From Theionarchaea archaeon (lineage in GTDB: Archaea; Methanobacteriota_B; Thermococci; Methanofastidiosales; SZ-28-30): a stretch of DNA of 64,000 bases. Numbering within the stretch: position 1 is the first letter of the stretch; the number at the start of each line of letters is the position of its first letter. A program made the position numbers and the translations under genes. The notes below the pieces were generated by a model. The model was not told the DNA's origin. It ran no database searches and saw only the letters and a list, made by a program, of their open reading frames with translations. The stretch lies in contig JACVGT010000019.1 in assembly GCA_018992685.1 (NCBI GenBank), positions 32,001 through 96,000 of the forward strand, given 5' to 3'. Of this stretch, positions 3,409 to 26,178 are shown one piece after another.

Positions 3409-3468
3409 ACACGAACCTCCTTTTCTCTTTTGCCGACTCAGCCGGCTATTACTCCTTATAGCAACCCA

Positions 3469-7338: not shown

Positions 7339-7342
7339 AATA

Positions 7343-8269: not shown

Positions 8270-8284
8270 GAAATCACCTTTAGA

Positions 8285-9268
8285 CTAAAACTCCACTCTT
8301 GGATCAAGCCATTTGTAGGAAATGTCAATCAAGACATTAGCCACTAGAATAAGAGTTCCAAGTACCACGGTAATCCCTACAATGACGAAATAGTCCCTGT
8401 GCTGAATTGCATACACAAAGTACTTCCCCAGGCCGGGCCATGAAAACACTGTCTCAGTAATAGGTGCTCCTCCCAGGGTAAGTGCAATCTGCATCCCTGT
8501 CACAGTTATCACTGGAAGCATTGCGTTTCTCAGTGCATGCTTGTAAATCACTATTCGTTCCTTGAGCCCCTTGGCCCTTGCTGTCATGATATAGTCTTCC
8601 CGCAGGACATTGAGCATTGAGGATCGGACCAACCGCGCATTGTATGCAGTCGATGCCAGACCCAGAGTCAATGTGGGCAGAGCCAGATGTTTCAGGTAAT
8701 CAAAGTAGTACGAAAAGTCATGGGGAATATCTTTTCCCAGAAACACCGTAGAATGGGCACCCCCACTGGGAAGCCATCCCAGTATCAGGGCAAATATGAA
8801 AATGTTCATCAACCCCAGGAAGAATATGGGGAACGAAACGCCCAGTAACGCCGCTGTCATGACCAGATTATCCGTCTTTGAATATTGTCTGACTGCAGAT
8901 ACAATTCCTGCTGGGATAGCAACACCTATCGAAAAGACAACGGCAAGCAGCTGGTATGATAGGGTGTTTACCACTCTGGCCCCGATTTCTTCGGAGACAT
9001 CTCTTCCAGATAGAAATGAAGATCCAAGATTAAAGGTTGCAAACTGTTTGAGCCAGTAAAAGTACTGGATATACCAAGGTTTATCCAGGCCGTAAATCGA
9101 TTTTATGTGTGCCACGTATGCAGGATCAGTGTCGGGCTGTAGTGCCAACATGAGATCAACAGCATCCCCTGGCATCAAGTACATTAGCATGAACACTATG
9201 AAAGAGATTCCCATGAGCATGGGAATAATCAGGATCACTCTTTTCAGGATATATTCTCTCATTCCCAT
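8285..9268 (-). CDS. dppB: Peptide ABC transporter permease (DppB/OppB)
   Basis: MPGDA, YGLDKP, EDYIMTARAKGL, WLDPRV; AAGGAGG RBS. Confidence 0.95.
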   Translation of the reverse strand: MGMREYILKRVILIIPMLMGISFIVFMLMYLMPGDAVDLMLALQPDTDPAYVAHIKSIYGLDKPWYIQYFYWLKQFATFNLGSSFLSGRDVSEEIGARVVNTLSYQLLAVVFSIGVAIPAGIVSAVRQYSKTDNLVMTAALLGVSFPIFFLGLMNIFIFALILGWLPSGGAHSTVFLGKDIPHDFSYYFDYLKHLALPTLTLGLASTAYNARLVRSSMLNVLREDYIMTARAKGLKERIVIYKHALRNAMLPVITVTGMQIALTLGGAPITETVFSWPGLGKYFVYAIQHRDYFVIVGITVVLGTLILVANVLIDISYKWLDPRVEF

Positions 9269-9394
9269 ATCGCACATCCTCCTTTGTTTTGTTTAGAGCA
9301 AGTCTCCTCATGTCGGGGCTGTTCTTTCTTGTCCTCAGTCATTTCAACTCTCCCTCTTCAAAAAAGGGAAAAAGAGGGAAAAAATTTTGTTCTT

Positions 9395-11314: not shown

Positions 11315-11363
11315 ATCTTTTCTACCTCCTTTGATCGGTATTGTATCCACGTACAGGGAAAGG

Positions 11364-11379
11364 CTTATAAACCTTTCGG
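11364..11379 (-). promoter_or_regulatory. BRE/TATA promoter of the SBP1 operon
   Basis: Minus strand CCGAAAGG TTTATAAG; implies a 5'UTR of about 30 nt. Confidence 0.75.
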
Positions 11380-11464
11380 TTTCAGTAGTATATACTATCT
11401 TAAGTCGTAGCTAAAGCCAATAGTAGCATGCTACATTATATAATAGCTATTACCTTAAATAGTA
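11374..11464. promoter_or_regulatory. Array of operator-like inverted repeats upstream of and abutting the SBP1 BRE
   Basis: TACTAT-cttaa-GTCGTA (11393-11409), TGCTAC-attat-ATAATA (11429-11445), TATTAC-cttaa-ATAGTA (11448-11464), half-site GTAGTA (11385-11390). Confidence 0.65.
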
Positions 11465-11563
11465 AATTGAAGATTCTGGATTGGCTGCTTTTTACCTGGG
11501 CGGGCCGAACTCGGGCTTTTGCAGATAATCAAAAAAGAAACGCCGAAAAAATGAGAAACAAAG

Positions 11564-11752
11564 TCAGAATACGATGACAACTCCCATTTTCTCCAACAAG
11601 AAATATATACAGATCAGAAAGATAACAATCAGCCCCAAAATGAACAGCAGGGTGACTTTCTCTTTCGAATTCTTGTAATCTCTAGCGAAAATACCAATCA
11701 GTAGCACATCGCACACAATCGCTACCAGGAGTAGCAAAGCCTGTACATTCAT
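11564..11752 (-). CDS. Small two-TM hypothetical protein
   Basis: AGGAGG RBS, two hydrophobic helices, T-rich stretch after the stop. Confidence 0.7.
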   Translation of the reverse strand: MNVQALLLLVAIVCDVLLIGIFARDYKNSKEKVTLLFILGLIVIFLICIYFLLEKMGVVIVF

Positions 11753-11883
11753 CTAATTCCTCCTTTTCTAATCAGCATTTCGTAAGTTTTCAGATGTGGT
11801 GGTGTGTCCTCGTCACGTCGACATAAATACTTTTGGATAGGGTTCCTGTGTTACATAATCAAATCGTACTAATACATCATTTA

Positions 11884-11913
11884 CAGCATAGTAGGAATTT
11901 TCTTACTATGCTG
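11884..11913. repeat. 13-bp inverted repeat
   Basis: CAGCATAGTAGGA-attt-TCTTACTATGCTG, one G-T pair. Confidence 0.7.
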
Positions 11914-11990
11914 CAACTTCTATCTTGAAGAAATGATTATCATAAGAGGATTTCGTATGCTTTTCTTTCACTGCACTGCGTGTGCAATCA

Positions 11991-12073
11991 TCCATTGTCA
12001 AGCATAATTCTCCCTTTCTTACCAGCATCTTGTTATGTTCTTTCCAATTTCTGGTCATAAAACCATCTGGTTT
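11991..12073 (-). mobile_element. IS5-family (IS903-like) transposase 5' remnant, copy 1
   Basis: 80/83 nt identical to 13655-13737; encodes MTRNWKEHNKMLVRKGELCLTMD, then homology stops. Confidence 0.75.
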
Positions 12074-12197
12074 TCTACAGTGACAATTCCTGGATGGACC
12101 ATCTCACAGAACAGGAAGAAGACTTTCCATTTGCGAGGAATTCAAGAAATTCTCTGGAAAAGCAAATCTTACTCTCCCTGTAGGACATCTCTCAGAG

Positions 12198-13133
12198 TCA
12201 GTACTGCCTTTCCAGTCTCATTATCTGTACAAAGTGCACGGCTACTAAAGTCAGTAGAGAAAGAACAAACACGATGAAAGTGTCAGAAATGATGTCATGT
12301 ATGTGGACAAAATTTGTGTCAATGCCTGTGTAGAGAATTTCGCCCGAGAAACTCGCTCTATCCAGTACGTGGAGGGTATCATTGAGGGCATACACGACTT
12401 CAGCGTCCATGATTGCTCCTGCAAAATCCTTCTGACTCTTGCGCACCTGGTAGTTATGATACGCTGTCTCCGCCATGAATATGTAGGACTCCGACAGGAC
12501 TTCACTATACGTATTTCTCAATGCGGCTTTCTCTGCATGATCTATAGTATTCTGGTAGCACTTGTCAAGAGGCAGTTCCTCCATAGTTTCAATAGAGGAG
12601 AACAATTCATTCAAGAATGCTTCATAGTGATCTGATTTCACAAAGTCGTCCCAGGAACTGGAATTTTCGCCACCATAATATTTCTGCAGTATTCTGCAGT
12701 ATTCTCCAGCATGACCTGAAATTCCTATTGCGTCAGGACCACAGGCCCACTTGTCACACACACGAAAATAGGCACCCAGAATCTTTGACTTGACCTCCAA
12801 TAGTGTACACTCACGAGCCTGCGTTCGGATTGTTCCACTGAAGAGTTTTTCTTCACTTTGAAGGTATTCGTGAAAATCCAGAAGATAGATGGAGTAGAGG
12901 GCACTTGTCTCTTTCTGGAAGTAATCAGAGAGCTCTTCTGGGTCATTTTTGTCAAGGGCTTCCCAATCTCTCTCTAGAATGTCTGAATTTTCTCTGACTA
13001 TCTCTTTCAGGTCAGATATGTTTTCTTCAATCTGTCCTTCGAATTGTTTCTGTCTATAGTAAGAGGTAGCCACCAGCCCTACAAGAAAAAGAACAATCCA
13101 AAGATAAATCAGCTCTTTTCGATTTTCTTTCAT
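12198..13133 (-). CDS. Hypothetical membrane protein with N- and C-terminal TM helices
   Basis: Long ORF; start MKENRK after GGAGG; no family recognised. Confidence 0.75.
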   Translation of the reverse strand: MKENRKELIYLWIVLFLVGLVATSYYRQKQFEGQIEENISDLKEIVRENSDILERDWEALDKNDPEELSDYFQKETSALYSIYLLDFHEYLQSEEKLFSGTIRTQARECTLLEVKSKILGAYFRVCDKWACGPDAIGISGHAGEYCRILQKYYGGENSSSWDDFVKSDHYEAFLNELFSSIETMEELPLDKCYQNTIDHAEKAALRNTYSEVLSESYIFMAETAYHNYQVRKSQKDFAGAIMDAEVVYALNDTLHVLDRASFSGEILYTGIDTNFVHIHDIISDTFIVFVLSLLTLVAVHFVQIMRLERQY

Positions 13134-13134
13134 A

Positions 13135-13509
13135 TTAGAACGTCTTCCTCCATGCATCTTTAAATATGCCACGTATCAACGACTCTATGACTTCAGTACA
13201 CATGTCTTTCCATGCATCATTTCTGATGAAACTTTTGGTAATAGTCAAATAAGTCCGGTTCTCTTTTTGTGAAAGATAATCGCTTAGAGCATATCCCATA
13301 AGATATCCATTCCCCCAGTCTTTGGCCTCATCATCAGACATTTCAAGACTCCGTGTGAAGTTATAAGCCTCCTTATAGTCACGTAGTCGCGGTGTTTGCG
13401 AACCAAATGCTCCTAAAGTAACTGATGCTGGTTGGCTAAAATCAAAAAGAAATCCTACAGCAGAGACAGTCTGCTGAGGTAAGTCCCTCTGTATACTGCG
13501 ACAACTTTC
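13135..13509 (-). pseudogene. 3' remnant of a gene truncated at the IS remnant
   Basis: Frame stays open upstream of the ORF-track start (IQRDLPQQTVSAVGFLFDF...) up to the transposase-fragment stop; its own stop abuts the next ATG. Confidence 0.5.
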
Positions 13510-13737
13510 TCAAAGTGCCTTTAACTGTCTATAGGACACGCTGAACACTGTCTTCGTCAGGGCAGTATATGCTATGAATTGAGGAAATGCAAAAGGGCTA
13601 CCTCGCTTGTTCACATTCATCTGCTGAAGTTCTTCATTCCAATATTCAATGAAATCCATTGTCAAGCATAATTCTCCCCTTCTTACCAGCATCTTGTTAT
13701 ATTCTTTCCAATTTCTGGCCATAAAACCATCTGGTTT
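13510..13737 (-). mobile_element. IS5-family (IS903-like) transposase N-terminal fragment, copy 2
   Basis: MARNWKEYNKMLVRRGE...KRGSPFAF...SYRQL is the typical N-terminus; DDE core absent. Confidence 0.8.
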
Positions 13738-13759
13738 CCCTATAGTATCCTTCTATTGG

Positions 13760-13785
13760 TTTATGCGTCAAACAAGGTATTTGAA
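13760..13785. repeat. 26-bp dispersed repeat, copy 1
   Basis: tttatgcgtcaaacaaggtatttgaa; 24/26 identical to 14746-14771. Confidence 0.65.
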
Positions 13786-13902
13786 GGCTAAATTGTACAA
13801 CACAGCAGATAGGGTTGAACAGCTAGAGTATGACCATCAGATTGGGGTAATCTTTATAAGGTATTGATAACCAACTCCCATGGTGATCTCATAAAACAGA
13901 TT

Positions 13903-14322
13903 ATGGCTCTACTGTGTTGCTTTCTGGTACTCGGCTGTACCATTGGTGTGAACCTTGATACACCTGAAAACACAGTGAACACATGGGTTCGATCGTACAA
14001 CGATCGGGATGTTGAGGGTATATATATAACACTGTCAAGAGCATACATCATGGCCAATGGCGGCGAGGAACGAGTGAAATCGATCATCGGGACCATGCTG
14101 GAAGAGGCTGAGGAATCAGAAATTTCGTTTACTGTGAAGGGGATTGGATTGCTTGCTTTGTCGACGGAACAGCCGGGATTGTCATCAGGCAGAACCATAT
14201 ATCTCGCGAGAATGGACAGGAAGTTTACAGAGGAAGGGGAGAAAAGAGTCGAAGAAGTCTTCTGGAATTTCGCTGTAGTAAAAGAAGACGACAAGTACAA
14301 GATCGAAGATTTCTGGGACTGA
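13903..14322 (+). CDS. Putative lipoprotein, possibly NTF2-like fold
   Basis: Lipobox-like FLVLGC; TPENTVNTWVRSYND and VVKEDDKYKI patterns; start codon uncertain. Confidence 0.65.
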   Translation: MALLCCFLVLGCTIGVNLDTPENTVNTWVRSYNDRDVEGIYITLSRAYIMANGGEERVKSIIGTMLEEAEESEISFTVKGIGLLALSTEQPGLSSGRTIYLARMDRKFTEEGEKRVEEVFWNFAVVKEDDKYKIEDFWD

Positions 14323-14745
14323 AAAGAGACGGATTTCTTATTCTTTTTGCACTTTCTTTCGCTGCCGTTATACGTCTCTACGCTTTCCACACATGGCCCA
14401 TATAGCATTTTAGGCAAGGCTGGTGCAGGAATGGTAAGCACGCATTAGGATTGCTATGCAGGTTCTGGAACAGGAGGTGCCTCGTGGTGTTCACAGACAG
14501 AACGCACTCCTTGTGCTTCTAACAAGACTACCAGAATCCACAGAGAGTCATATTTCGCGTGAAGGAATGAAAATGTGAATTTGAACCCTCAGTTACCAGT
14601 ACTCTCTTTCTCAGGTTCTCTAACCTCATTGTTGAGTCAAATTCCCTAACAGCTTGCTTCTCCCGTTTGACGTCCTCTCACCACGGTGCCTTTCAGATTT
14701 CTGGTCACACTAGTCTGGGTTCTCCGTGTCTAATTTCCCGACCAT

Positions 14746-14771
14746 TTTATGCTTCAAATAAGGTATTTGAA
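14746..14771. repeat. 26-bp dispersed repeat, copy 2, containing a perfect palindrome
   Basis: TTCAAATA-agg-TATTTGAA at 14753-14771. Confidence 0.65.
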
Positions 14772-14807
14772 TGAAAAATCGCGTAGTACACCACCAGAGC
14801 ACAAACC

Positions 14808-14834
14808 TTTAAAAGCTTACGACAACAGGTAGTA
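14808..14834 (+). promoter_or_regulatory. TATA box plus putative autoregulatory operator of the blaI-like gene
   Basis: TTTAAAAG at 14808-14815; TACGAC-aacag-GTAGTA at 14818-14834; ATG at 14838 (leaderless spacing). Confidence 0.7.
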
Positions 14835-14837
14835 GTA

Positions 14838-15224
14838 ATGAATATCAAAAGACTTGGTCCTCTAGAACGAACAATAATGGAAGTCTTCTGGGAGAAGAAA
14901 AAAGCTGATGCACGGGAGGTCTATTCAGAACTCAACAGAGAAAAACAAATCGCCTACACCACCATCAATACTACTCTCACCCGTCTTCACAAGAAGAAAT
15001 TGCTCAACAGAAAGCTGGTGAAGGGAAGAGGAGGATACCGTTATGTGTACACCATTGCCAAGTCAAAACCAAAATACATTGATCAGGTCATACGCTCTAC
15101 CATAGATGATCTCCTGATGCGGTTCGGAAATCGAACCATAAGTTACTTCTCAGAAAGTCTCAACCTGAATGAAGAGGATGTGGAGAAGCTAAGAGTTCGT
15201 CTGAAGGAGTTGTCTCATGAATGA
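14838..15224 (+). CDS. BlaI/MecI/CopY-family transcriptional repressor
   Basis: LGPLERTIMEVFW...AYTTINTTLTRLHKKKLL...YVY winged-HTH signature; overlaps the M56 gene. Confidence 0.9.
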   Translation: MNIKRLGPLERTIMEVFWEKKKADAREVYSELNREKQIAYTTINTTLTRLHKKKLLNRKLVKGRGGYRYVYTIAKSKPKYIDQVIRSTIDDLLMRFGNRTISYFSESLNLNEEDVEKLRVRLKELSHE

Positions 15225-16554
15225 GTGGCAGAATTTTGCGCTTGCGATTGTATTGATTGTGGTGGTACAATTCACCAACGAGGGCATCATTGCGCTACTG
15301 AAAGTGAGGAATGCCACCACTCGATTCCGTATTAGGCTCATTTCTCTTGTCTCCTGTTTTTTCGTGTTTTTGATTGTTCCGTTCAAGATCGTGGAACTCA
15401 CCATCCTGTCGGGAGAGATTTTTGTCGGCAGCAGTGAATCTTCCCAGATTGATGGCTGGGTGGCCAGATCTGCCACAATGACGTCGACCTATTCTGGGTT
15501 TGCACGGGCCAGCGTTGTTCTCCTCTTGATAGCTGTGTGCTGCTTTGTTGTCATGGTTCTGTTCGGCAAGCACATAACTGGTAGAGTATTTGGATGTGAG
15601 CCAGCAACAGATTCGAGGCTTCTGACCATTGTGAATCAAGTCTCCTCTGAACTGGGACTGTCCATCAAGCAGGTGATGGTGTGCAGAAAGAAATGTGACG
15701 CCTTTGTATATGGATACCCTCCTTTCCTAGCAGTGGGAAGAGACCTCCTCACTATGCTGGATGACAGTGAGCTCCGGATAGTCATCAGGCATGAATTGTA
15801 CCATGTCAAAGGTAAGGACACACTCCTGAAGCCATTTCTTGCCGCTCTGTGCATTGTCTTCTTATACAACCCCATGAGCTGGTTCCTGTATAGAAAAGTG
15901 TTTAATGACAGGGAGTGCTGCGCTGATCAGGCTTCTATCACCTGTTCTCAGGACACCAGGACATTTCTTTCCCTGCTGCTGAAATTCCACAGCCTTGCAA
16001 GTGGCATGCCGCACACGTTTGCTGTTCACTGGACGGGAGCCACTAACAGAATTGACTCACTCCTCTTTGCAGAAAAGACCCGGAAGATCCCTGTCTTCTT
16101 GTGTTTGTTCTTTACGGTCTCATCGCTTTTTGTGGGAGGTACTCAGCTCTTTGAGAACCAATTTGTGGAAATCAACAGCTCTATTCCGTTTGATTCAGAA
16201 ACATATGGTCCGGAAGCTGATTTCTCAGACTATTTCTATGATATTCCTGTAGCAGAATGGTACAACAGAAAACGATCGGAAAATGAAGTGAGTATCCCAC
16301 TACAGGAAAGAGACCTCAGAAAACTCCTGTCTGCAGACGAACTTGCCAAGGGAGAAATCACCATAAGAATGGCCACGCTTCCCTTGGGAAGGAGACCTCA
16401 GTTGTTTGGCAGAAACGATATTGTGGATGGCAACTGTAACCTCATCATTGAAATAGAAGAGGGCAAACTATTCGTTTCCATAAGACAGAACAATGGACCT
16501 GGAACGTCCCAGAAGGAAGCCGTTCTCAGTGGAGGACCTGCCACAGCAATGTAG
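15217..16554 (+). CDS. M56-family (BlaR1/MecR1-like) membrane metallopeptidase with an unrecognised C-terminal domain
   Basis: TM helices, HELYH, NPMSW, RECCAD; no penicillin-binding domain recognised. Confidence 0.85.
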   Translation: MNEWQNFALAIVLIVVVQFTNEGIIALLKVRNATTRFRIRLISLVSCFFVFLIVPFKIVELTILSGEIFVGSSESSQIDGWVARSATMTSTYSGFARASVVLLLIAVCCFVVMVLFGKHITGRVFGCEPATDSRLLTIVNQVSSELGLSIKQVMVCRKKCDAFVYGYPPFLAVGRDLLTMLDDSELRIVIRHELYHVKGKDTLLKPFLAALCIVFLYNPMSWFLYRKVFNDRECCADQASITCSQDTRTFLSLLLKFHSLASGMPHTFAVHWTGATNRIDSLLFAEKTRKIPVFLCLFFTVSSLFVGGTQLFENQFVEINSSIPFDSETYGPEADFSDYFYDIPVAEWYNRKRSENEVSIPLQERDLRKLLSADELAKGEITIRMATLPLGRRPQLFGRNDIVDGNCNLIIEIEEGKLFVSIRQNNGPGTSQKEAVLSGGPATAM

Positions 16555-16758
16555 GACTGTACTGAACGTGCAGGGAGAGTCACGGTATTCTAAAGGTATC
16601 CAGGGGTGTCTCGCACGCTCATGTGGCAATCCAGCACCTGGAATTTTCCTTGAATATATTGTTATATGTGTCCTCAGTCAGTCCCTGTGTGCCTAAGACC
16701 TGACGGTGGGACCTTCTCAATCAAAAAGCATTTATGTGGAATTATGTGAGAGACCACA

Positions 16759-18465
16759 ATGATCAGTGTTGAAGATCTCTCCTTTCAATACAGCACGGGT
16801 GAATCTCCGGTGCTAAGTAAAGTCACCCTGGTTGTTCCTCAGGGCGGCTACCTCGCGCTGGTTGGCCCTTCAGGTTCAGGAAAGAGTACTCTCTGTTTCA
16901 CCATGAATGGGATCATCCCCCATTCCATTACGGGTATTCTGTCGGGAAATGTTGTTGTTGACAGGTTGAATACGCGAGAACACCATGTGCACGAGCTTGC
17001 TGAAAAAGTGGGCATTGTTCTTCAGAATCCTGAATCCCAGCTCTTTGCCATGAGTGTGGAGGAAGAACTGGCTTTTGGTCCCGAGAATCTGGGTCTGCCC
17101 CGAGAAGAAATACTGGCCCGCATTGAGGACGTCCTAACCATTATTGGAATTGCAGACAGGGGGCGGTTTCCTTTCTCTCTATCGGGAGGAGAGAAACAGA
17201 AGCTTGCAATTGCTTCTATTCTGACCATGAACCCCTCTCACCTTGTGTTAGACGAACCAACCTCTCAACTGGATCCCCGGGGAAGAAAGAGTGTGTATGA
17301 TGTCCTGGACAAGCTTCACGCTGGCGGAATGTCCATCATACTCATTGAACATAATACAGAGCACATTGCAGAGCGTGCCCAGCAGGTGCTGGTGATAAAA
17401 GATGGCTCTGTCGTTGCCTCGGGATCGCCAAGAGATGTATTTTCTCAGGTGGAGACCATGAAAGCTCTGGGCATACAGGTTCCTGGGGTTGCTGAAGTCA
17501 CCTATGAGCTTCACAGGAGAGGCATCATACAAAGAATAGCTGTGACCCTCGAAGATGCGGTGTCACTGCTTGAAAATCTCAGACCCAAGGAATTCACTTC
17601 TCAGAGCCTGAAGACAGAATCAACCCTCACGAGAGTGGGGAGTTCTTCACCATCTTCACGTACGGAACCTGCTGTTGAGGTGAAGAATCTGTCCTTTCAG
17701 TACGGCGATGTCCCCGTCCTCAATAATGTTTCTCTCACTATTGGACACGGAGAGATTGTAGCAATCATTGGACAAAATGGATCTGGAAAGACAACGCTGG
17801 TCAAGCATTTCAATGGATTGCTGCGTCCGAAGGAAGGAGACATTTTCATCTTTGGAGAATCTGTTAAGGACAAGAGTGTTGCTCAATTAGCCCGGAAGGT
17901 AGGATATGTTTTTCAGAACCCAGATCATCAGATCTTTGCAGATAGTGTGTTCGAAGAAGTGGAATTCGGCCTCAAGAACCTTAGTGTCCCTCTGGAAGAG
18001 AGAGCAGAACGCGTGGCTGCGGTTCTGAAGCAGACTGACCTTTTCAGATATAAGGATACACACCCTACCAGCCTGTCGGGTGGGGAAAAACAGCGGCTGG
18101 TCATCGCGTCTGTCCTGGTAATGAACCCCCAGATTCTCGTCCTGGATGAACCAACGACTGGCCTGGATCTCAAGAGCTCTCGCTCAATAATCGACCTGGT
18201 CAGAGCCCTTCACCAGCAGCATCGCACTGTAATCCTGGTGACTCATGACATGAACCTGGTGGCAGAGATGGCACACCGTATACTCATTCTCAAAGACGGG
18301 ACCCTGGCTGCTGAAGGAAGCCCGCATCAGATCTTTTCAGATGAAGGCCTGCTCAGTGATAACTTCCTGGAAGCACCGCAGATCGCCAGACTCAGCAGTC
18401 GTCTGGGATATGGAACGTGTCTGAACATAGAAGAGTTTCTCCACAAACTGGAGGGTACCCTATGA
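16759..18465 (+). CDS. ECF transporter tandem ATPase (fused EcfA-A')
   Basis: Two Walker A motifs, QNPESQ and QNPDHQ, two LSGGEKQ. Confidence 0.93.
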   Translation: MISVEDLSFQYSTGESPVLSKVTLVVPQGGYLALVGPSGSGKSTLCFTMNGIIPHSITGILSGNVVVDRLNTREHHVHELAEKVGIVLQNPESQLFAMSVEEELAFGPENLGLPREEILARIEDVLTIIGIADRGRFPFSLSGGEKQKLAIASILTMNPSHLVLDEPTSQLDPRGRKSVYDVLDKLHAGGMSIILIEHNTEHIAERAQQVLVIKDGSVVASGSPRDVFSQVETMKALGIQVPGVAEVTYELHRRGIIQRIAVTLEDAVSLLENLRPKEFTSQSLKTESTLTRVGSSSPSSRTEPAVEVKNLSFQYGDVPVLNNVSLTIGHGEIVAIIGQNGSGKTTLVKHFNGLLRPKEGDIFIFGESVKDKSVAQLARKVGYVFQNPDHQIFADSVFEEVEFGLKNLSVPLEERAERVAAVLKQTDLFRYKDTHPTSLSGGEKQRLVIASVLVMNPQILVLDEPTTGLDLKSSRSIIDLVRALHQQHRTVILVTHDMNLVAEMAHRILILKDGTLAAEGSPHQIFSDEGLLSDNFLEAPQIARLSSRLGYGTCLNIEEFLHKLEGTL

Positions 18466-19253
18466 TTCAGCAGACCATGTTTATTCGAAAAGAATCCTTT
18501 CTTCACTCTTTGGATCCCAGAACAAAGCTATTCTTATCCATTGGCCTGTTTCTCGTGGGTGTCCTGTTCACTGATTACAGAGTGCTGATGGCCCTCTTTG
18601 CAGGCGAGGTTATCATTCTCAGAGTGGCAGCCAGAATTCCTTTTTCGAAGTTATTCCCGTACCTGAAACTGATTCTTCCTCTTGTGGTTATGGCACTGCT
18701 GATATGGCCCCTCTTCCAGAGAACGGGGACAGTTCTGGTATCCTACTGGAAGGTTATCATCACGAAGGAGGGAATCCAGATGGGAATTGCCATGTCCTTG
18801 AGACTGCTGTCTTTGATCGTGGCTACGTATTTGCTCCTCATGACCACCGAGCAGAGAGATCTGGTTCTTGCTCTCGTTAAATCCGGATTGCGGTATGATT
18901 TCGGGTTAATGTTGGCCATTGCTCTGAGCAAGGTTCCTGCTCTGGCAGGGATTGCCTTGACCATCATGGATGCGCAGAAGGCACGAGGGCTCGAACTCGA
19001 AAAGGGAAATATCGTTGAAAAAGTGAGAAAGTACATACCTATTCTGATTCCATTGATTATTTCAGCTATAAGGCTGGCTGAAGCGTTGTCCATTGCAATT
19101 GATTCTCGAGCATTTGGGAGAGGGAGGCGCACCTACCTGAGAGAGCTTCACTTCACGATGAAAGATGCGCTGGTCACTGGTATGGCTGTGGTGGTGATTT
19201 CAGTATGTATGGGAATGCGTGCTGCAGGATATGGTGTTATGGAATTGCCGTGA
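18462..19253 (+). CDS. ecfT: ECF transporter T component
   Basis: LHSLDPRTK, AQKARG, AIDSRAF; ATG overlaps the upstream stop. Confidence 0.92.
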   Translation: MIQQTMFIRKESFLHSLDPRTKLFLSIGLFLVGVLFTDYRVLMALFAGEVIILRVAARIPFSKLFPYLKLILPLVVMALLIWPLFQRTGTVLVSYWKVIITKEGIQMGIAMSLRLLSLIVATYLLLMTTEQRDLVLALVKSGLRYDFGLMLAIALSKVPALAGIALTIMDAQKARGLELEKGNIVEKVRKYIPILIPLIISAIRLAEALSIAIDSRAFGRGRRTYLRELHFTMKDALVTGMAVVVISVCMGMRAAGYGVMELP

Positions 19254-20059
19254 TGGCTGTCGGAACCGTATTGATGTCGGCTGCACTGGAAAACCCGGTG
19301 GAGGGGTGGGCTGTCCTCATGGAAACCAATGATTTCCCTGGAGGGTACACTGATCTCCCTCTGGGCTTCGTGGATGTTGAACGAATGGAGACCCTGCTCC
19401 AGTACCACGGGTGGCAGAAATCACACATGCTACTAAGAAGAGATACTATTACGACGCAAGCAGTGAAGGAGGGTATTGCATACCTGCAGAAAGCAGATCA
19501 GAATGACATTGCTTTGTTCTACATTTGCTCTCACGGAGGATATCTGAGGCATGATCTCCAATGGAACAGTCTCATGCCTCCGCTCTGGGAGCGTGTTACC
19601 AGTGAAAAGAGAGTATTGATTATAGATTCCTGCTATGCAGGTTCCTTTCTGCCGGAAAGCGAGAGACCATACATCGGGATTGGCTCAGTTTCGGCTGACG
19701 AGCTTGGGTGGGCAGGCCTGCCAGAAGAGAACCTGCCTATTACCGGGTTCGTGTTCACCTACTACTTCTGCCAGTCCACCCTGGGAGTATCAGTTGAAGA
19801 GGGATTTGGAAGGGCCAGTCCCCAGGTACAGCAGTACATGCAGGATGTGGTCTATCCGGCTTTCAAGGAAGTCTATCCTCCCGAGCACTACAATGTCTAT
19901 GATCCTCATCCTGTGTTGAAGGATTCGTATCCAGGTGAGCTCTCCCTGTGGGTTGATGAGGGTGGAGTTTCTCTCTCTCAGGTTCTGGCTGTCCTGATGC
20001 TTCTCCTCCTGGGAATCATCCTTGCCCTGGATAGAAAAGGAATCTGTTCATGTGACTAG
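19205..20059 (+). CDS. Secreted/anchored caspase-like (clan CD, C14-like) peptidase
   Basis: His-Cys dyad motifs YICSHGG and IIDSCYAG; N-terminal hydrophobic segment and C-terminal TM. Confidence 0.75.
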   Translation: MYGNACCRIWCYGIAVMAVGTVLMSAALENPVEGWAVLMETNDFPGGYTDLPLGFVDVERMETLLQYHGWQKSHMLLRRDTITTQAVKEGIAYLQKADQNDIALFYICSHGGYLRHDLQWNSLMPPLWERVTSEKRVLIIDSCYAGSFLPESERPYIGIGSVSADELGWAGLPEENLPITGFVFTYYFCQSTLGVSVEEGFGRASPQVQQYMQDVVYPAFKEVYPPEHYNVYDPHPVLKDSYPGELSLWVDEGGVSLSQVLAVLMLLLLGIILALDRKGICSCD

Positions 20060-20166
20060 GAAATGTGTAATGAAAGGGACGCTATACGGGGAAGTGAAGG
20101 TTTTCATCCTTTGTTCCTCTGCGTGCCGGCCAAAAGCTTTATATTTCAACAGAAGCAATCTCTCCT

Positions 20167-21210
20167 GTGGAATCGACAACTGATATTCTGGAGAAACTCA
20201 TAGAAGAAGAACAGAGAATAAGGCAGAAAGCAGAAGAACTGGGACTCCATGTCGGAAAAGAGTCACTAGAAGAGGCTAAGAAGCCCTTCAGGGCCAAAGA
20301 AGGAATTCCCAGGACAGAACTCACTGAACGAGAGATGTCTCGGCTGCTGGCCGAAACGAGGGATATTCTTGACATCTACAGCTTGGATTATGTTTCTGAG
20401 CATTTTGATGAGGCTAAGAATCTGTATTACGCGCTGAAGGACAAACCCTTCTCGCCTGATTCTCTCATTGGATCACGAATCGTGCAGAATATCCAGGAGT
20501 TGAAGGAACGAATCGATGCAGTGGAAGAACAGGAATCTCCAACAAAACCACTGGAAGAACTGCTTTCTGATTCGAAGAGGCTTCTTGATTCTCTGGATTC
20601 ACTTGACGCAGTTCAGGCGAAACGGCGCTATGCTGATCTGCTGAAGAGACAGCAGGATGCGCCCAAGAATGTGGATCAGCCACTTGAAGTAGAAATCGAC
20701 GAGTACCTGCTGGAAATTGGGAAACGAATTCAGCGAACAGAAAAAAAGACATCTGAAGAAATTGGAGAAGAGCTTCTGGAAGAAATCAGCACGTTGATTG
20801 GATCCAAGAGTTTTGATCCTGAAGGATACAACAGGATTGCCAGAAAATTCCAGGAAATAGCAGATGATCTTCCTGAAGATCTCAAAGTGAAAATAAGAGA
20901 CCGCATACGCGAGTCCTTTGCCAAGATGAAGGATCTCGAACAAAAGGAACACGTTGAAGAACGAATACGGGAAGAACGTGCCAAGAAGTTCTACTGGGAT
21001 TCATTCGCTCAGGAGGTGGAACAACTGAAGGCCGATCTGGAGCGAGCAACACCTGGAGAGTTTTTCAGGCTCTACGATATCTACAATCAATTGCTGGACT
21101 CACTGGAACACGCAGATCTATCAGATGTTCATGCTGCCCAGATTGAGCGGGTAAAATCAATGATAGATCAGTGTTACTACATGCTGGAAGAACTCAGATC
21201 ACGAGCATGA
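20167..21210 (+). CDS. Acidic alpha-helical/coiled-coil hypothetical protein
   Basis: 347-aa E/K/L-rich ORF; TATA-like TTTATAT about 25 nt upstream. Confidence 0.75.
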   Translation: MESTTDILEKLIEEEQRIRQKAEELGLHVGKESLEEAKKPFRAKEGIPRTELTEREMSRLLAETRDILDIYSLDYVSEHFDEAKNLYYALKDKPFSPDSLIGSRIVQNIQELKERIDAVEEQESPTKPLEELLSDSKRLLDSLDSLDAVQAKRRYADLLKRQQDAPKNVDQPLEVEIDEYLLEIGKRIQRTEKKTSEEIGEELLEEISTLIGSKSFDPEGYNRIARKFQEIADDLPEDLKVKIRDRIRESFAKMKDLEQKEHVEERIREERAKKFYWDSFAQEVEQLKADLERATPGEFFRLYDIYNQLLDSLEHADLSDVHAAQIERVKSMIDQCYYMLEELRSRA

Positions 21211-21214
21211 TACC

Positions 21215-21997
21215 CTATTTGGGGAGTCGTCCCAGTTCCACCACTCCTTTGGAAACAATGCGCTGTACCGTTGTTCTGGATCCGATCTTCAGGCTGCCAT
21301 CACACATGACTTTCTGAAGAACGCTGTCAGATCCCACGTAGATATCTCCTTTACAGTATACATCTTCTTTTACTTCACAGAAATTCCCTATTTCCAGCTG
21401 GACTTCTATGTTCACCGGCGAATTCATAATATTTCTGTCTCCAAGAGATGCATCCTTACCTTTTATAGAACCCTTGAACTCACACTCGGCTTTGCTCTTC
21501 ACCGTTGAAGCCACCACATCCCCATACACCATATTTTTGCTACCAAGGTGGACTTCTTCTCCTGCTTCAATATTCCCTTTTATAATGACTCCATCTCCGA
21601 GGTGGATGCTGCGGCTGGTTTTCAGCCCTCCTGTAAGAACCAGATCATCAGAGAGGCTAATGTCTGAGTCTCTGGCCACAATGGCAAAGGTTTTCAGGGA
21701 AATCTCATCCTTTTTCTGCTGTATTACCTGTTGAAGTTCGGATATTTCAAGATTCTTTTCTTCAATAATCTGTTTCAGCTGGCGTTCAGTTTCTGCAAAA
21801 TTTTCCACCTTGTCCAGGAGAGCCTGGTTATCCTCAGTCAGCCTTTCGGCTACCTCTCGTAACTTGGACACTCCGCCGTATTCCTTCCTGTAGGTTTCCA
21901 ACTCCCTGGTGATACGGGAGTTTTCGTCCCGCAATTCGGTGGCCATCCGTCTTAGAGATTCTATAACCTCATCTTTTCCTTTGTCAAAGAGCCCCAT
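21215..21997 (-). CDS. Coiled-coil plus bactofilin-like beta-helix protein
   Basis: Start MGLFDKGK after GGAGG; heptad region, then repeats IKGNIEA, VYGDVVA, FKGSIKG, VKEDVYC. Confidence 0.7.
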   Translation of the reverse strand: MGLFDKGKDEVIESLRRMATELRDENSRITRELETYRKEYGGVSKLREVAERLTEDNQALLDKVENFAETERQLKQIIEEKNLEISELQQVIQQKKDEISLKTFAIVARDSDISLSDDLVLTGGLKTSRSIHLGDGVIIKGNIEAGEEVHLGSKNMVYGDVVASTVKSKAECEFKGSIKGKDASLGDRNIMNSPVNIEVQLEIGNFCEVKEDVYCKGDIYVGSDSVLQKVMCDGSLKIGSRTTVQRIVSKGVVELGRLPK

Positions 21998-22157
21998 GCT
22001 GTTCAACCTCCATTCTTTTTTTCTACAGCATATATATAGCTTTTTCCATTGCCATTGCCGGACTGGTGAAGACCACATCCATTGTCAAGTCAGGCTCTGT
22101 TCTTCATACGTGGCTGAGCAGAAAAGTCGTTTTCTTTCGCCAATGCGAAAATAAAGT

Positions 22158-22619
22158 TCACATTGAGGATTTTCTCTCAGTCAGCTCGAACAAGCAGTAG
22201 CTATCTCCGGCAGCCTGACAGGAGGTCTCCCTGTACATGATGTCTTCTTTACTGTAATATCTGGAAACCAGCCCCTCGAAAAACCCAGCCAGAAAATGAC
22301 ACACGGGGTCATTACTTTCCGCATAGCCAGAAGCAATCGGAGAATCAGTAACCTGGAACTGAAATTCTTCAGGATGAAAGGTAGCCCTCACAAAGCCAGT
22401 GGCTTCCAGCTCGGCCAAAAGATCCTGGATGGTGGCGCCTTCATCTTCTGATTGCATGATTTCCATGTACTTGTCGCCAAATTCCTTTCCTGCAGAGTAG
22501 AGAACTTTGGCCGCAGAGGGCCCAATGGAATCCTCCAGCGTTTTCTGGATTTTCATGAAAATGCTGTTAAGCACCACTAGCTTCCTCTTTTTTTCCACCG
22601 GCAGCAATTCTTTCATCAT
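22158..22619 (-). CDS. V4R-domain protein
   Basis: LYSAGKEFG, PVCHFLAGFFEG, ETSCQAAGDSYCLF. Confidence 0.88.
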   Translation of the reverse strand: MMKELLPVEKKRKLVVLNSIFMKIQKTLEDSIGPSAAKVLYSAGKEFGDKYMEIMQSEDEGATIQDLLAELEATGFVRATFHPEEFQFQVTDSPIASGYAESNDPVCHFLAGFFEGLVSRYYSKEDIMYRETSCQAAGDSYCLFELTERKSSM

Positions 22620-22742
22620 ATATCCTTTCAATCAGGACTTTATAAAGGTATAGGAGGCGAGCAAAGAGGTAGTAGACCTGCCTTCTTGCTGACATTTCAA
22701 GATCTGCTGCTCCGGTGTCTGCCATCACGCTGAGGAGCCACA

Positions 22743-23537
22743 CTACGAGCCAAACCAGGCATCTAGCCTCCTCTGCCCAGGCTGGGCCTTCCTGTACGGG
22801 ATGTTCAGAAGGTCCTTCAACATTCGTGCGTTGCTGATTGCCTGCCCTCGGGGGTGATTATTGAACTGGAGATACAAAGTCTCGGTTGAGAGACGTATTT
22901 CTTGCACTTTGGGTACCCACTCCTTCAATTCTTCTTCTGAGTATTGATAGTCATACCAATGCGATGGGTTCCTTCCATGCCATCTAACATATCCAAGATC
23001 TGATGTGATTCGTACGAGAGGTTCCATTTTCACAGAATCTGTCACAACAAAGGCGGCGTGGTCATCTCTGAGAAAGGAAACGTCAATTCTCGAGTCCCAG
23101 GAGGTGTGGCGGAACTCTACCGCAAACCGCACATTGTCAGGTAGAAAGTCCAAGAACTCCTTCAGGTTATCTTCATACTCTGTAGAGAACTTTGGAGGCA
23201 ATTGAATGAGGAAACAGCCCAGCTTTCCTGAATCTATGAGAGGAAACATCAAAGAATAGAATTCCTTGAACACCGGTTCTGAATTCTTGAGAAATCTCTT
23301 GTGAGTAATCTCTTTGGGGATCTTTGCGGTGAAGACAAAATCATCAGGTACCTTCTTGTTCCAGGAAATGACCGCGTACTTATTGGGTAGGGCATAGAAA
23401 GTGGAGTTAATCTCTACCAGATTGAATTCCCTTGCATAAAACTCTAACATCTTTCCCTTCTCAATGCCTTCAGGGTAAAACGGGCCAATCCAATCATCAT
23501 AGCTCCAGCCACTCGTTCCTATGTATAAGGTTCCCAT
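22743..23537 (-). CDS. DUF72 (YecE-like) TIM-barrel protein
   Basis: IGTSGWSY, VEINSTFY, AVEFRH, YVRWHGR, FNNH. Confidence 0.92.
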   Translation of the reverse strand: MGTLYIGTSGWSYDDWIGPFYPEGIEKGKMLEFYAREFNLVEINSTFYALPNKYAVISWNKKVPDDFVFTAKIPKEITHKRFLKNSEPVFKEFYSLMFPLIDSGKLGCFLIQLPPKFSTEYEDNLKEFLDFLPDNVRFAVEFRHTSWDSRIDVSFLRDDHAAFVVTDSVKMEPLVRITSDLGYVRWHGRNPSHWYDYQYSEEELKEWVPKVQEIRLSTETLYLQFNNHPRGQAISNARMLKDLLNIPYRKAQPGQRRLDAWFGS

Positions 23538-23720
23538 AGTAGGAGTTCTTCTGATACCAAAAAAATGTTACGGTTCCTGTGCTGTAATGAGCCCCTGTGA
23601 TACTTCTGCTCCTGTTCTGCTGAGCCCCCATATCGATGCAAGGCCTCACATCACACATCTTTTGTTCCCACATCGAAGGGACGTACTTCCAGCATCCGAG
23701 CTCAATCATCCACGTGTCAA

Positions 23721-23798
23721 CCGAAAGTCTTATAAGTAGTAGTTATTATAATAACAAGTAGCTACTACTAAAAGTAGTATCTACTACGGAAAATCGGA
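23721..23798 (+). promoter_or_regulatory. BRE/TATA promoter of SBP2 followed by tandem operator-like repeats
   Basis: CCGAAAGT CTTATAAG; TACTAC-taaaa-GTAGTA (23763-23779); TACTAC-ggaaa-ATCGGA (23782-23798). Confidence 0.72.
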
Positions 23799-23799
23799 A

Positions 23800-23903
23800 C
23801 TCCAATACCGTCTGCTGGTTGAAGATGTCGGCCTCCTTGGATCGGTATTGCAGACACTGAACCCGATCAACATCACCTCCAGCAGATGGTATACAGAATG
23901 GAG
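23800..23903 (+). ncRNA. Structured 5' leader RNA of SBP2 with a bulged anti-SD/antisense segment
   Basis: Stems 23805-23818/23879-23892, 23824-23828/23870-23874, 23840-23845/23863-23868; homologous to the SBP3 leader with compensatory changes. Confidence 0.7.
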
Positions 23904-23921
23904 ACCAAAGGAGGAAGAAAA

Positions 23922-25811
23922 ATGAACACAAGAAAGATCTCAGTCGTATTGTCTGCCGTGTTACTTGCTTCTTTAACTCTATCCCTATTCGGAACCAGTA
24001 CTGTTGCACAAGAACAGCAGTGGAAAAAAGTGCCAACTACTGAAGACTATTCCAATTACCCCGCATTCTTTTCGATCACGCAGATTGCCCCCATTGGGAA
24101 CAAGGTTAGGGAACAGTATACACAGGCAGCCAACCTCGAAATGAGAAAAATCGGCATAGGGGCTGACTTCAGAATGCTGGAGTTCGGAGACCTGATCAAC
24201 AGGGAATTCAACAACTACTATGGCAGCACATTTGCTGAAGATGGATTCGACATTTCTTCATTCGGCTGGTCAGTGGGAGTAGACCCCGATCCCTTTGACA
24301 GTTTCCACTCTTCTGCAATGACCCCCATAGGTAACAACATTACATTCTGGTACTGCCCGGAAGCTGATGAGATGCTCTCTCTCGCACGAGTTGAACTTGA
24401 CCAGCAAGCCAGAAAGGAATACCTGTGGAGATTCCAGGAGATTGTTGCGGATGAAAAGCCCTACTGTGTGGTGTATGTGCCACTGCTCATCTGGGCCTCC
24501 ACAGATCAACTGGAAGGCTTTAATTCACTGATGTGGCAGCAGAACTTTGATGCTGTAACCTGGTCAATTCCAGGAAAAGACACCGTTGTCTATGGTACAC
24601 CCGCAGCTGTCGAGGGTATGCTGCCCTGGAGATGGAACTCAGTGTATGGACACTATCTTCACAACCAGATATTTGAGACATTGTGGACCGTTGCTCCAGA
24701 CCTCACCATTGAATCAAGAATTGCTGACTCTGCAACAGAAGGACCTTCAATCGTATTTGCCCCTAGCACTCTTGATGATGCTTCAATTGAGGCTCTCGGA
24801 CCTGATGTCAAGAAGTGTGTGGTGAACACCAAACTCGCAGGTCCTGTTGTGTTCCCCGAATACTACGACATCAAAATCAAAGAAGGCATCATGTTCCACG
24901 ATGGCGTGGAGATGACCAGTGAAGATGTCAAGTGGTCAATGGATGCCTGTGTCAGCGCAGACACCGCCTTCCAGGGATGGGGTACCTTCAGAGATGTATA
25001 TTCCAGCTCAGAAATCCTTGACAAGTACACACTGAGAGTGTATGTCGGGATGCCCCACGCAGCATGGGTACAGTATTGTAATCCATATGTATTGCCCAAG
25101 CATATCTATGGTGGCATTCCTATAACAGGAGCAGAAGCTGCCACCAGCTGGATGGAATCTGACATCAACAGAGGAGACACTGTCATTGGTTCAGGACCCT
25201 TCATGTTTGATTCCTGGGAAGCTGACCAGTTCTGGAAGATGAAGAAGACACCTGACTACTGGGGTTCTGCATATGGATATCTTGAAGCAGGATGCGACTT
25301 CCTGATACTGAAATTGATACCCGAGAGAGAGGCAGCCCGTGTTGCCCTGGAAACTGGAGAAATTGACATCATGTGCTGCTACTACCAGCTCGGAGCAATT
25401 GCTCAGGACCTGGAAGCTACCCCCGGCCTAGTGTTGTGGACCACAGAAGACTTCGGCTACCAGCACCTGCACTTCAACTGCCGCAACCCGTACCTTGCCA
25501 ACAAGTACGTGAGACAGGCCATTTCCTCCTGTATTGACAGACAGGGAATTGTGGACAAGTTGCTGGGTGGTTATGGTGTGCCTGGTGCCAACCCTGTTGC
25601 CGTTCCCTCGTGGGCCTTCAACACCAACATTGCACCAGACCCATACGATCTGGACAAGGCACGAGAGTTGATGGACACGGCAGGATATCGCTACTACGTC
25701 CTAGAAAAGACGGTGAGCACAGGCGGAGAAGAGGAAGCTGGAGGCGGATTCTGTCTGGGAACCCTGTTTATAGCCCTTATGAAGACTAATCATCTATTCA
25801 GGAGAGAGTGA
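23922..25811 (+). CDS. Orphan family-5 solute-binding protein SBP2, circularly permuted, CLGT tail with shortened hydrophobic segment
   Basis: Start MNTRK after AAAGGAGG; close paralog of SBP1 and SBP3; ends GGFCLGTLFIALMKTNHLFRRE. Confidence 0.92.
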   Translation: MNTRKISVVLSAVLLASLTLSLFGTSTVAQEQQWKKVPTTEDYSNYPAFFSITQIAPIGNKVREQYTQAANLEMRKIGIGADFRMLEFGDLINREFNNYYGSTFAEDGFDISSFGWSVGVDPDPFDSFHSSAMTPIGNNITFWYCPEADEMLSLARVELDQQARKEYLWRFQEIVADEKPYCVVYVPLLIWASTDQLEGFNSLMWQQNFDAVTWSIPGKDTVVYGTPAAVEGMLPWRWNSVYGHYLHNQIFETLWTVAPDLTIESRIADSATEGPSIVFAPSTLDDASIEALGPDVKKCVVNTKLAGPVVFPEYYDIKIKEGIMFHDGVEMTSEDVKWSMDACVSADTAFQGWGTFRDVYSSSEILDKYTLRVYVGMPHAAWVQYCNPYVLPKHIYGGIPITGAEAATSWMESDINRGDTVIGSGPFMFDSWEADQFWKMKKTPDYWGSAYGYLEAGCDFLILKLIPEREAARVALETGEIDIMCCYYQLGAIAQDLEATPGLVLWTTEDFGYQHLHFNCRNPYLANKYVRQAISSCIDRQGIVDKLLGGYGVPGANPVAVPSWAFNTNIAPDPYDLDKARELMDTAGYRYYVLEKTVSTGGEEEAGGGFCLGTLFIALMKTNHLFRRE

Positions 25812-25988
25812 CACTATTTGAAATCTCCTGATTGAGCCAAAAATCCCATAAAGATTTTATCCTTCAACCTAAGAACTCAACCTGTCAACATTTCTTATCC
25901 AGTATTACCAATAGTGTCATGACATATGCACCTTTCATCCCACTACCATAGCAGCAAGTAGCTCCGGGAGAAAGAACATTAATTCCAA

Positions 25989-26056
25989 GCGAAAGTTTTA
26001 TAAAGCACAGTAACTACTAAATTCAAGTAGTTACTATTTTAAATAGTATCTACAAC
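25989..26056 (+). promoter_or_regulatory. BRE/TATA promoter of SBP3 followed by operator-like repeats
   Basis: GCGAAAGT TTTATAAA; TACTAT-tttaa-ATAGTA (26032-26048); half-site TACAAC (26051-26056); also AGTAACTACT-N7-AGTAGTTACT (26009-26035). Confidence 0.72.
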
Positions 26057-26064
26057 TGAGACAA

Positions 26065-26153
26065 TCCCGGACCGTTCACTGGATGAAGATGTCACCTCCT
26101 TTGATCGGTACTCTACATTCGATCCGACATCTCATCTGGTGGATGGTGCGGGA
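26065..26153 (+). ncRNA. Structured 5' leader RNA of SBP3 with a bulged anti-SD/antisense segment
   Basis: Stems 26065-26069/26149-26153, 26071-26086/26132-26147 (4 G-U pairs), 26088-26093/26126-26131, 26103-26107/26120-26124; bulge ACCUCCUUU. Confidence 0.72.
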
Positions 26154-26178
26154 AATGGAGACTAAAGGAGGATAAAAA

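Follow-up and report, generated by a model that had tools for sequence, protein, structure and literature searches.

What does a repressor of the BlaI family regulate in an archaeon, and why would its operators lie downstream of the promoter at some target genes and upstream of it at another? The question is raised by a 64,000-bp stretch of DNA (hereafter, the window; G000:C15:32001-96000) from the 3.03-Mb genome of an uncultured sediment archaeon (Theionarchaea), designated G000. According to Pfam, the window contains four genes of family-5 solute-binding proteins (SBP0–SBP3), two oligopeptide-type ABC transporter operons, and a Penicillinase_R (blaI-like) gene overlapping an M56 protease gene. 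Judging from the sequences, the BlaI-family repressor most likely controls peptide-binding and peptide-cutting genes via a DNA site that is bound by its mycobacterial relative, and a promoter shift at SBP1 may loosen or even reverse the control of this gene. SBP1 (9395–11314, minus strand, ATG at 11314; PF00496) is the head of an operon with two permeases and two oligopeptide/dipeptide ABC ATPases downstream (5393–9277, minus strand; PF00528, PF12911, PF08352). SBP2 (23922–25811) and SBP3 (26179–28080), both on the plus strand, are orphan paralogues, 77% and 76% identical to SBP1, respectively. SBP1–SBP3 share 76–81% identity with each other and 24–26% with SBP0 (1564–3408, minus strand; PF00496; start set from the Shine–Dalgarno (SD) sequence), the first gene of the second ABC operon. 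Relatives were grouped by family: f1 (four genomes including G000), f2 (six), f3 (17), f4 (seven), f5 (97), and f6.

An initial annotation of the window had described a 6-5-6 inverted repeat at the promoters of blaI and SBP1–SBP3. All four sites are exactly where it had placed them: TACTAT-N5-GTCGTA at 11393 (SBP1), TACGAC-N5-GTAGTA at 14818 (blaI), TACTAC-N5-GTAGTA at 23763 (SBP2), and TACTAT-N5-ATAGTA at 26032 (SBP3). The window has four matches to the repeat versus 0.09 expected, and four or more matches occurred in none of 100 shuffles. Genome-wide, the consensus TACKAY-N5-RTMGTA (N5 site) was found ten times versus 1.3 expected, with eight matches outside the coding cores of a crude open reading frame (ORF) set. 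Other spacers yielded 0–4 perfect matches each, except the 4-bp spacer with 13. On these counts, the suggestion that the motif is merely common in AT-rich intergenic DNA was rejected; the rarity check run genome-wide showed that the N5 form is rare, though not limited to the four promoters of the window.

The position of the sites relative to the promoter elements, which were assigned by eye from consensus, is opposite at SBP1, as had been claimed. The blaI TATA box (14808–14815, plus strand) is followed by the self-operator (14818–14834), which ends 3 bp before the ATG and has 1-mismatch variants in G001 and G002. At SBP2 (23720–23798, plus strand), the B recognition element (BRE) and TATA (23720–23736) are followed by three sites in the 19-bp tandem register noted earlier, at 23744, 23763 (perfect), and 23782. 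The SBP3 promoter (25989–26056, plus strand) comprises the BRE/TATA (to 26004), an imperfect site (26012–26029), the perfect site (26032–26048), and a half-site (26051–26056), an arrangement kept in G001. At SBP1, the TATA (11364–11371) and the BRE CCGAAA (11374–11379), both on the minus strand, are preceded by an unstranded array at 11385–11464, consisting of a half-site (11385–11390) and four dyads at 11393–11409 (no mismatches), 11412–11428, 11429–11445, and 11448–11464 (1 mismatch). The full site at 11393, said to abut the BRE, does lie upstream of it, but the neighbour of the BRE is the lone half-site 5 bp away. No site had been seen at SBP0; the degenerate operator TGCTAT-N5-GTAATA (3447–3463, minus strand, two mismatches) is located directly downstream of the SBP0 TATA and is kept in G001 and, as CACTAT-N5-GTAATA, at the same position in G002. 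A 2-mismatch match is weak when taken alone, as 156 of 2689 ORF upstream regions have a match with at most two mismatches (24 of 2689 with at most one).

The protein encoded at 14838–15224 (plus strand), designated BlaI-A, is a Penicillinase_R winged-helix repressor (PF03965, E 1.6e-22 over residues 6–123) with a C-terminal dimerisation part and with PDB matches to 1sd4, 1okr, and 2g9w. Its recognition helix IAYTTINTTLTRL aligns with that of the mycobacterial Rv1846c (LAYTTVMAVLQRL, 2g9w), with which it has AYTT in common, and not with the staphylococcal SDKT/SPKT helix. The ChIP-seq consensus of Rv1846c in supplementary file 5 of PMC4301838 is tctACGACaccgtGTAGTAGac, or TACtACacngtGTaGTA with a forced palindrome, and was present in 14/14 peaks (E 3.8e-32). 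The self-operator of the window blaI is identical to this motif, TACGAC-N5-GTAGTA. The mycobacterial form of the site given in the initial annotation is verified by this consensus, which also supports the reading of the motif as a BlaI-type operator. By protein alignments and tree, BlaI-A is assigned to the BlaI/M56 family and to the mycobacterial-type (AYTT; TACKAC-N5-GTMGTA) specificity class.

The overlapping gene (15217–16554, plus strand) encodes an M56 membrane metalloprotease (445 amino acids; PF05569) with four hydrophobic segments and a C-terminal region of about 130 amino acids belonging to no known family. The zinc ligands are intact, HExxH (192–196), E233, and D237 being invariant in 5/5. 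Pfam gave no match to a transpeptidase domain on this protein, and the C-terminal part had no known look-alike (best ESM Atlas value 0.81, a lead only). With no transpeptidase sensor domain predicted, the BlaI-A/M56 pair does not appear to be a canonical beta-lactam sensor. According to PMC13492132, most BlaR homologues lack the transpeptidase domain.

BlaI-A is one of four BlaI-family proteins encoded in G000; B and C are each accompanied by an M56/M48 protease, and D is also found in Thermococcaceae. To relate the sites to these proteins, 230 bases upstream of 50 family-5 SBP genes were scored. Duplicate loci, promoterless fragments, and divergent matches of 820–940 amino acids were excluded; the set includes a truncated f2 region and an f5 gene with a miscalled start, and the negative set samples 5/7 f4, 3/17 f3, and 2/97 f5 genomes. 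With at most one mismatch, sites were found upstream of 9/20 genes in f1 (6/14 without G000), 5/13 in f2, and 0/17 in f3–f5, where none appeared even at two mismatches; the background is 24/2689 ORF upstream regions. Outside G000, this gives 11/27 promoters in f1 and f2, the families encoding BlaI-A (4/4 and 6/6 genomes, respectively), versus 0/17 in f3–f5; A-type BlaI was not found in f3–f6. Control spacers of 3, 4, 6, and 7 bp gave at most one match per family, and those of 2 and 8 bp gave 2/20 and 4/13, by-products of the tandem sites. In G002 and G003, blaI-A is divergent from a family-5 SBP gene. All three G000 paralogues with YTT/YST helices have a self-site of the same half-site, and the RRST-helix paralogue has none in 6/6. 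The SBP sites persist where other paralogues were not found, namely in G003 and f2 for BlaI-B and in f2 for BlaI-C. BlaI-A, proposed as the common regulator in the initial annotation, is the best candidate and quite probably the protein that binds these sites; what probability is not taken by a TrmB-like or other factor (see below) belongs to BlaI-B or to shared binding. BlaI-D was rejected as the binder, having a different helix, an occurrence in Thermococcaceae, and no self-site.

The layout of the SBP1 promoter appears to be derived, because the SBP1 orthologues of outgroups have their sites downstream of the BRE/TATA in all four readable cases (G003, G004, G016, and L133), as at SBP2 and SBP3. 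In an alignment, the outgroup BRE/TATA matches decayed sequence upstream of the array of G000 and G001, and the new BRE/TATA lies between the array and the SD, although this alignment has a mean column identity of 46% and hence is uncertain. The old promoter would have decayed and a new one would have arisen beyond the operators. Between G000 and G001, 50 of the 54 half-site bases are identical (93%), compared with 72/99 (73%) in the flank (p 0.003) and 327/503 (65%) at fourfold sites. A relic array was rejected on these values, which point to selection on the array. The opposite position of the sites at SBP1 is real and, as far as these comparisons indicate, both derived and selected. The upstream array occurs only in the two genomes, G000 and G001, that also have orphans with antisense leaders. 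The TATA region of SBP1 (11357–11376) is almost a palindrome: in G000 and G001, it can be read as BRE-TATA on either strand, and a divergent transcript might run across the operator array. The SBP1 BRE (ACCGAAAGG) is as near to consensus as the BREs of SBP2 and SBP3. The partner position of the terminal half-site at 11385–11390 is the BRE itself, in exact 19-bp register in both genomes, and a cooperative array would tend to cover it.

We consider, with moderate confidence, that a BlaI-A regulon with leaky repression of SBP1 explains these data best. A BlaI-A dimer would bind TACKAY-N5-RTMGTA, cooperatively on 19-bp tandem arrays, and would repress its own operon, the family-5 binding proteins, two DUF885 proteins, and a permease fusion, that is, a regulon for the uptake and breakdown of peptide-like nutrients. 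The co-transcribed M56 protease would cleave BlaI-A upon an outside signal, probably peptide-related, and thus lift repression. SBP1 would have been duplicated in this genus, with the orphans SBP2 and SBP3 retaining the ancestral, tightly repressed layout in which the sites span the start of transcription. SBP1, linked to the operon, would have acquired a promoter beyond the operators, where only the end of the array touches the BRE. SBP1 and the shared permeases would be made at a basal level, SBP2 and SBP3 would be added upon induction, and their leaders may then damp the translation of SBP1. Leaky repression is likelier than a toggle at SBP1 because the BRE is strong, because it lies in the register of the array, and because strict activation would remove the permeases just when the orphans are induced. 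The orphans probably depend on the permeases encoded with SBP1, as the transporter of SBP0 serves a protein only 25% alike.

Several observations weigh against this reading. A clean N5 self-site (at most one mismatch) is present in only 3/10 A-type blaI promoters (G000, G001, and G002); the corresponding site has three mismatches in G003 and two to five in the six f2 blaI genes, and G016 and G013 have a form with a 6-bp spacer. The A clade including f2 is supported by only 87/82 in the tree, and the co-occurrence was drawn from related genomes, amounting to about one independent clade contrast. In G000–G002, the site might also be bound by BlaI-B (helix TTYSTINTT). In G010 and G013 (L177:1361-1485, L178), trmB is followed by a gene of a sugar-binding-like lipoprotein; the promoter of this gene contains a perfect N5 site downstream of the TATA as well as a second word, TACT-N9-AGTA. 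Perfect N5 matches are also present in 13/17 f3 genomes, which lack BlaI; of eight matches fetched, six were in ORF cores, one within the opening codons of an ORF, and one in non-coding DNA. With 7/8 within ORFs, a regulon based on this motif in f3 is not supported. In the SBP1 array, the half-sites (50/54) are not significantly better kept than the spacers (21/26; p 0.14). Finally, family-5 binding proteins also bind nickel and sugars, and the peptide substrate is a predicted one.

Among the alternatives, a toggle at SBP1 survives best, but we regard it as unlikely. BlaI-A would repress SBP2 and SBP3 and activate SBP1 from the upstream array via recruitment of TFB or TBP; upon cleavage, SBP1 would fall, SBP2 and SBP3 would rise, and their leaders would silence the remaining SBP1 message. 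Sites upstream of the BRE mark activation in the case of TrmBL1/Tgr, Ptr2, and TFB-RF1 (PMC4158304), and the array is derived, conserved, and restricted to the two genomes with antisense-leader orphans. A similar layout is seen at the second blaI-M56 pair, blaI-B (G000:C15:133796-135512, L056), preceded by a 1-mismatch N5 site that ends 8 bp upstream of the TATA and lies next to a weak BRE in two of three genomes, G000 and G001. As judged by sequence, the blaI-B promoter is a better candidate for activation than that of SBP1, and a cascade from A to B is possible. At SBP1, in contrast, the BRE is consensus-strong and would be covered by the next dimer, and loss of activation would switch off the permeases that SBP2 and SBP3 probably need. 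No activator of the BlaI family was found in the open-access literature. Thus, of the proposal that one regulator represses SBP2 and SBP3 while activating SBP1, the first half fits the geometry of the sites and the second is so far unsupported.

The leaders were to form the second layer of this toggle. The SBP1 leader (11321–11345, minus strand) contains the SD and is complementary to the leaders of SBP2 and SBP3. The SBP2 leader (23800–23905, plus strand; fold z −3.7) and the SBP3 leader (26065–26154, plus strand; fold z −5.4) form hairpins with a bulged anti-SD, exposed within a 17–19-base complement of the SBP1 leader (23832–23850 and 26094–26110, respectively); a search of window positions 1–30000 gave no Rfam match for them up to E 1. 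The leader of a G001 paralogue keeps the complement with different stems, and the complement is kept in 4/4 orphan leaders of the two genomes. A fourth match to the antisense pattern in G000 (C8:31366) lies within coding sequence and was taken as chance. Isolated duplexes of three leaders reach −32 to −37 kcal/mol with the SBP1 leader versus −18 to −20 kcal/mol with their own SD, which speaks for the toggle. Once the cost of unfolding is counted, however, a net −4.4 to −7.2 kcal/mol remains, which does not improve on the SBP0 control (−6.0 and −7.9 kcal/mol); the model takes no account of kissing or co-transcriptional pairing. RNA libraries of two studies gave contigs, from relatives about 89% alike, that span the junction of the SBP3 leader with its coding sequence. 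In one study, contigs at least 99% like the window were obtained for SBP1 as well as SBP3 from the same runs (X1 and X2). This joint cover counts against the toggle, although in bulk RNA it is compatible with switching at the cell level; as contig-level data, the cover neither shows nor excludes a switch. Since depth in contigs cannot rank genes, the missing cover at 11604–14858 and 17463–20066 and the thin cover of SBP2 were not used. In the single-copy outgroup G004, the SBP1 leader (L128:6140-6260) is a long hairpin in which the word GCCTCC could base-pair with the SD of the same leader, possibly a cis ancestor of the antisense leaders.

It is less likely still that the sites belong to a TrmB-family or another global regulator which also controls the blaI operon, with BlaI-A being a target and not the binder. 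Halobacterium TrmB binds TACT-N7-8-GAGTA, a geometry equal to that of the 4- and 5-bp-spacer forms, and activates or represses depending on position, as given in PMC4158304; the trmB locus of G010/G013 and the f2 blaI promoters without a clean N5 site also fit such a regulator. On the other hand, a full sugar-TrmB is missing in G000 (PF11495, best E 1e-5, partial), and strong sugar-TrmB matches occur in 0/4 f1 and 2/6 f2 genomes but in 6/7 f5 genomes, where the family-5 SBP promoters are without the site. No upstream N5 site with at most one mismatch accompanies any of the 15 TrmB-like helix-turn-helix loci of G000, the two best TrmB matches of G000 have no close orthologue in G004 or G016, and the exact motif match is to the BlaI motif, not to that of TrmB. 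A TrmB/TrmBL1 sugar regulon therefore does not appear to account for the sites, as a TrmB with an effector domain is not present wherever the motif is.

It is about as unlikely that BlaI-A binds everywhere and that the SBP1 array spares initiation at SBP1, leaving this gene constitutive, with the array acting as a roadblock to read-through from a small upstream gene, as a block on divergent transcription from the palindromic TATA, or by repressor titration: the array does lie between a small same-strand gene (11564–11752) and the new promoter, and the TATA region reads in both directions in G000 and G001, but no divergent transcript or gene is evident and, in G000 as in G001, the BRE falls precisely into the 19-bp register of the half-site. 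A factor binding the junction palindrome, named beforehand as a refuting alternative, was judged unlikely, since RTMGTA-N2-TACKAY occurs only three times in the genome, twice within these arrays, and the blaI site and two G004 sites have no junction.

The small gene upstream of SBP1 (11564–11752, minus strand) is a hydrophobic 62-amino-acid ORF with no Pfam match, and a sequence resembling it by eye also precedes SBP1 in G001, G004, and L133. The interval between SBP1 and blaI holds an ORF without a Pfam match (12198–13172) and a repeated stretch near 11990–12080 and 13660–13745. About 2 kb of it (11565–13750) are missing from G001, and the whole interval is missing from G003, where blaI and SBP1 are adjacent.

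The preferred reading, a BlaI-A regulon, extends beyond the window. Perfect non-coding N5 sites precede two DUF885 genes and the gene of a 944-amino-acid permease fusion, in each case after a sequence that looks like a TATA box by eye, and another lies between a peptidase-MA gene and its divergent neighbour. Together with the SBP0 site, these sites suggest that the four sites of the window are part of a wider regulon. The sites at blaI and SBP1–SBP3 are real; the SBP0 site, the regulon beyond the window, and the other three BlaI paralogues had escaped the initial annotation. The N-terminus of a Pfam-less 347-amino-acid ORF of the window (20167–21210) resembles by eye that of the permease fusion (G000:C4:1298-4132). 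In G004:C3, two non-coding perfect N5 sites (L074:1507, L075:2015) lie in similar flanks with GATCGG/CCGATC words and could represent a small repetitive element or an RNA instead of simple operators.

The form with a 4-bp spacer (N4) and the same half-sites, with its 13 perfect matches in G000, numbers 6–11 per f1 genome versus 0–2 in the other 37, and the backward-read control gave 1–5 in f1. N4 sites precede genes of large surface proteins and a pilus ATPase. BlaI-C, a shorter paralogue (G000:C16:59790-61066, L058; orthologues L117–L119 in G001–G003) found only in f1, has the self-site TACGGT-N4-ATAGTA in 4/4 genomes. N4 sites may form a second regulon, with two paralogous pairs insulated by spacer length alone. 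In the most far-reaching version, which we consider improbable, the BlaI repressor became a position-dependent activator when the promoter shifted across its operators, with silencing leaders producing a protease-triggered swap of the binding protein on one ABC transporter, and with a sister BlaI pair insulated only by a spacer one base shorter.

Staphylococcal BlaI/MecI-BlaR1 and CopY have the same fold and Pfam family as BlaI-A, and an aromatic residue is kept in BlaI-A at the staphylococcal NF position, which is the cleavage site there. The staphylococcal system differs in its recognition helix, in its operator, TACA-NN-TGTA, which is not the motif found here, and in the beta-lactam sensor domain, which the window protease lacks. 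Unlike mycobacteria, the archaeal host has TBP/TFB promoters and no peptidoglycan. The mycobacterial Rv1846c/M56 system shares with BlaI-A the operator (supplementary file 5 of PMC4301838), the AYTT helix (2g9w), probable autoregulation, and the adjacent M56 protease, but the archaeal targets are family-5 binding proteins and peptidase-like genes, not blaC and ATP synthase, and one of them has its sites upstream of the promoter. CenIR of C. difficile and BlaI_0696/BlaI_1845 of C. thermocellum, as described in PMC13492132 and PMC8457756, resemble the window system in having M56 sensors without a transpeptidase domain, small regulons, tandem inverted hexamers 5 bp apart, and several paralogous pairs per genome; the binding of the two C. 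thermocellum proteins to tandem pairs matches the 19-bp arrays. These systems are bacterial and described there as repressors only, with half-sites GTCTAT and GACTAT and with envelope targets. By analogy, the window system probably works like such a non-canonical BlaIR system. TrmBL1/Tgr of Thermococcales and Halobacterium TrmB likewise have 6-5-6 or TACT...AGTA palindromes and ABC binding-protein targets, according to PMC4158304. There, the sign of control is set by position relative to the BRE/TATA, as may be the case here; these regulators differ in protein family, in release by sugar binding and not by proteolysis, and in the Thermococcales motif (TGM) TATCAC-N5-GTGATA.

No described archaeal BlaI-BlaR regulon was found in the open-access literature, including the P. 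furiosus factor inventory. The locus offers a candidate archaeal BlaI regulon with a named operator and named targets, the operator being identical to a tested bacterial one, so that binding is directly testable. It also suggests that uncultured sediment archaea use regulated intramembrane signalling in nutrient uptake, and it gives a lead on what M56 sensors without a beta-lactam domain detect, a question raised in PMC13492132. The SBP1 promoter represents a natural rewiring experiment, in which the operators are retained and the promoter switches sides. If the sign of control indeed changes at SBP1, this would be the first activator role for the BlaI family within the open-access literature searched.

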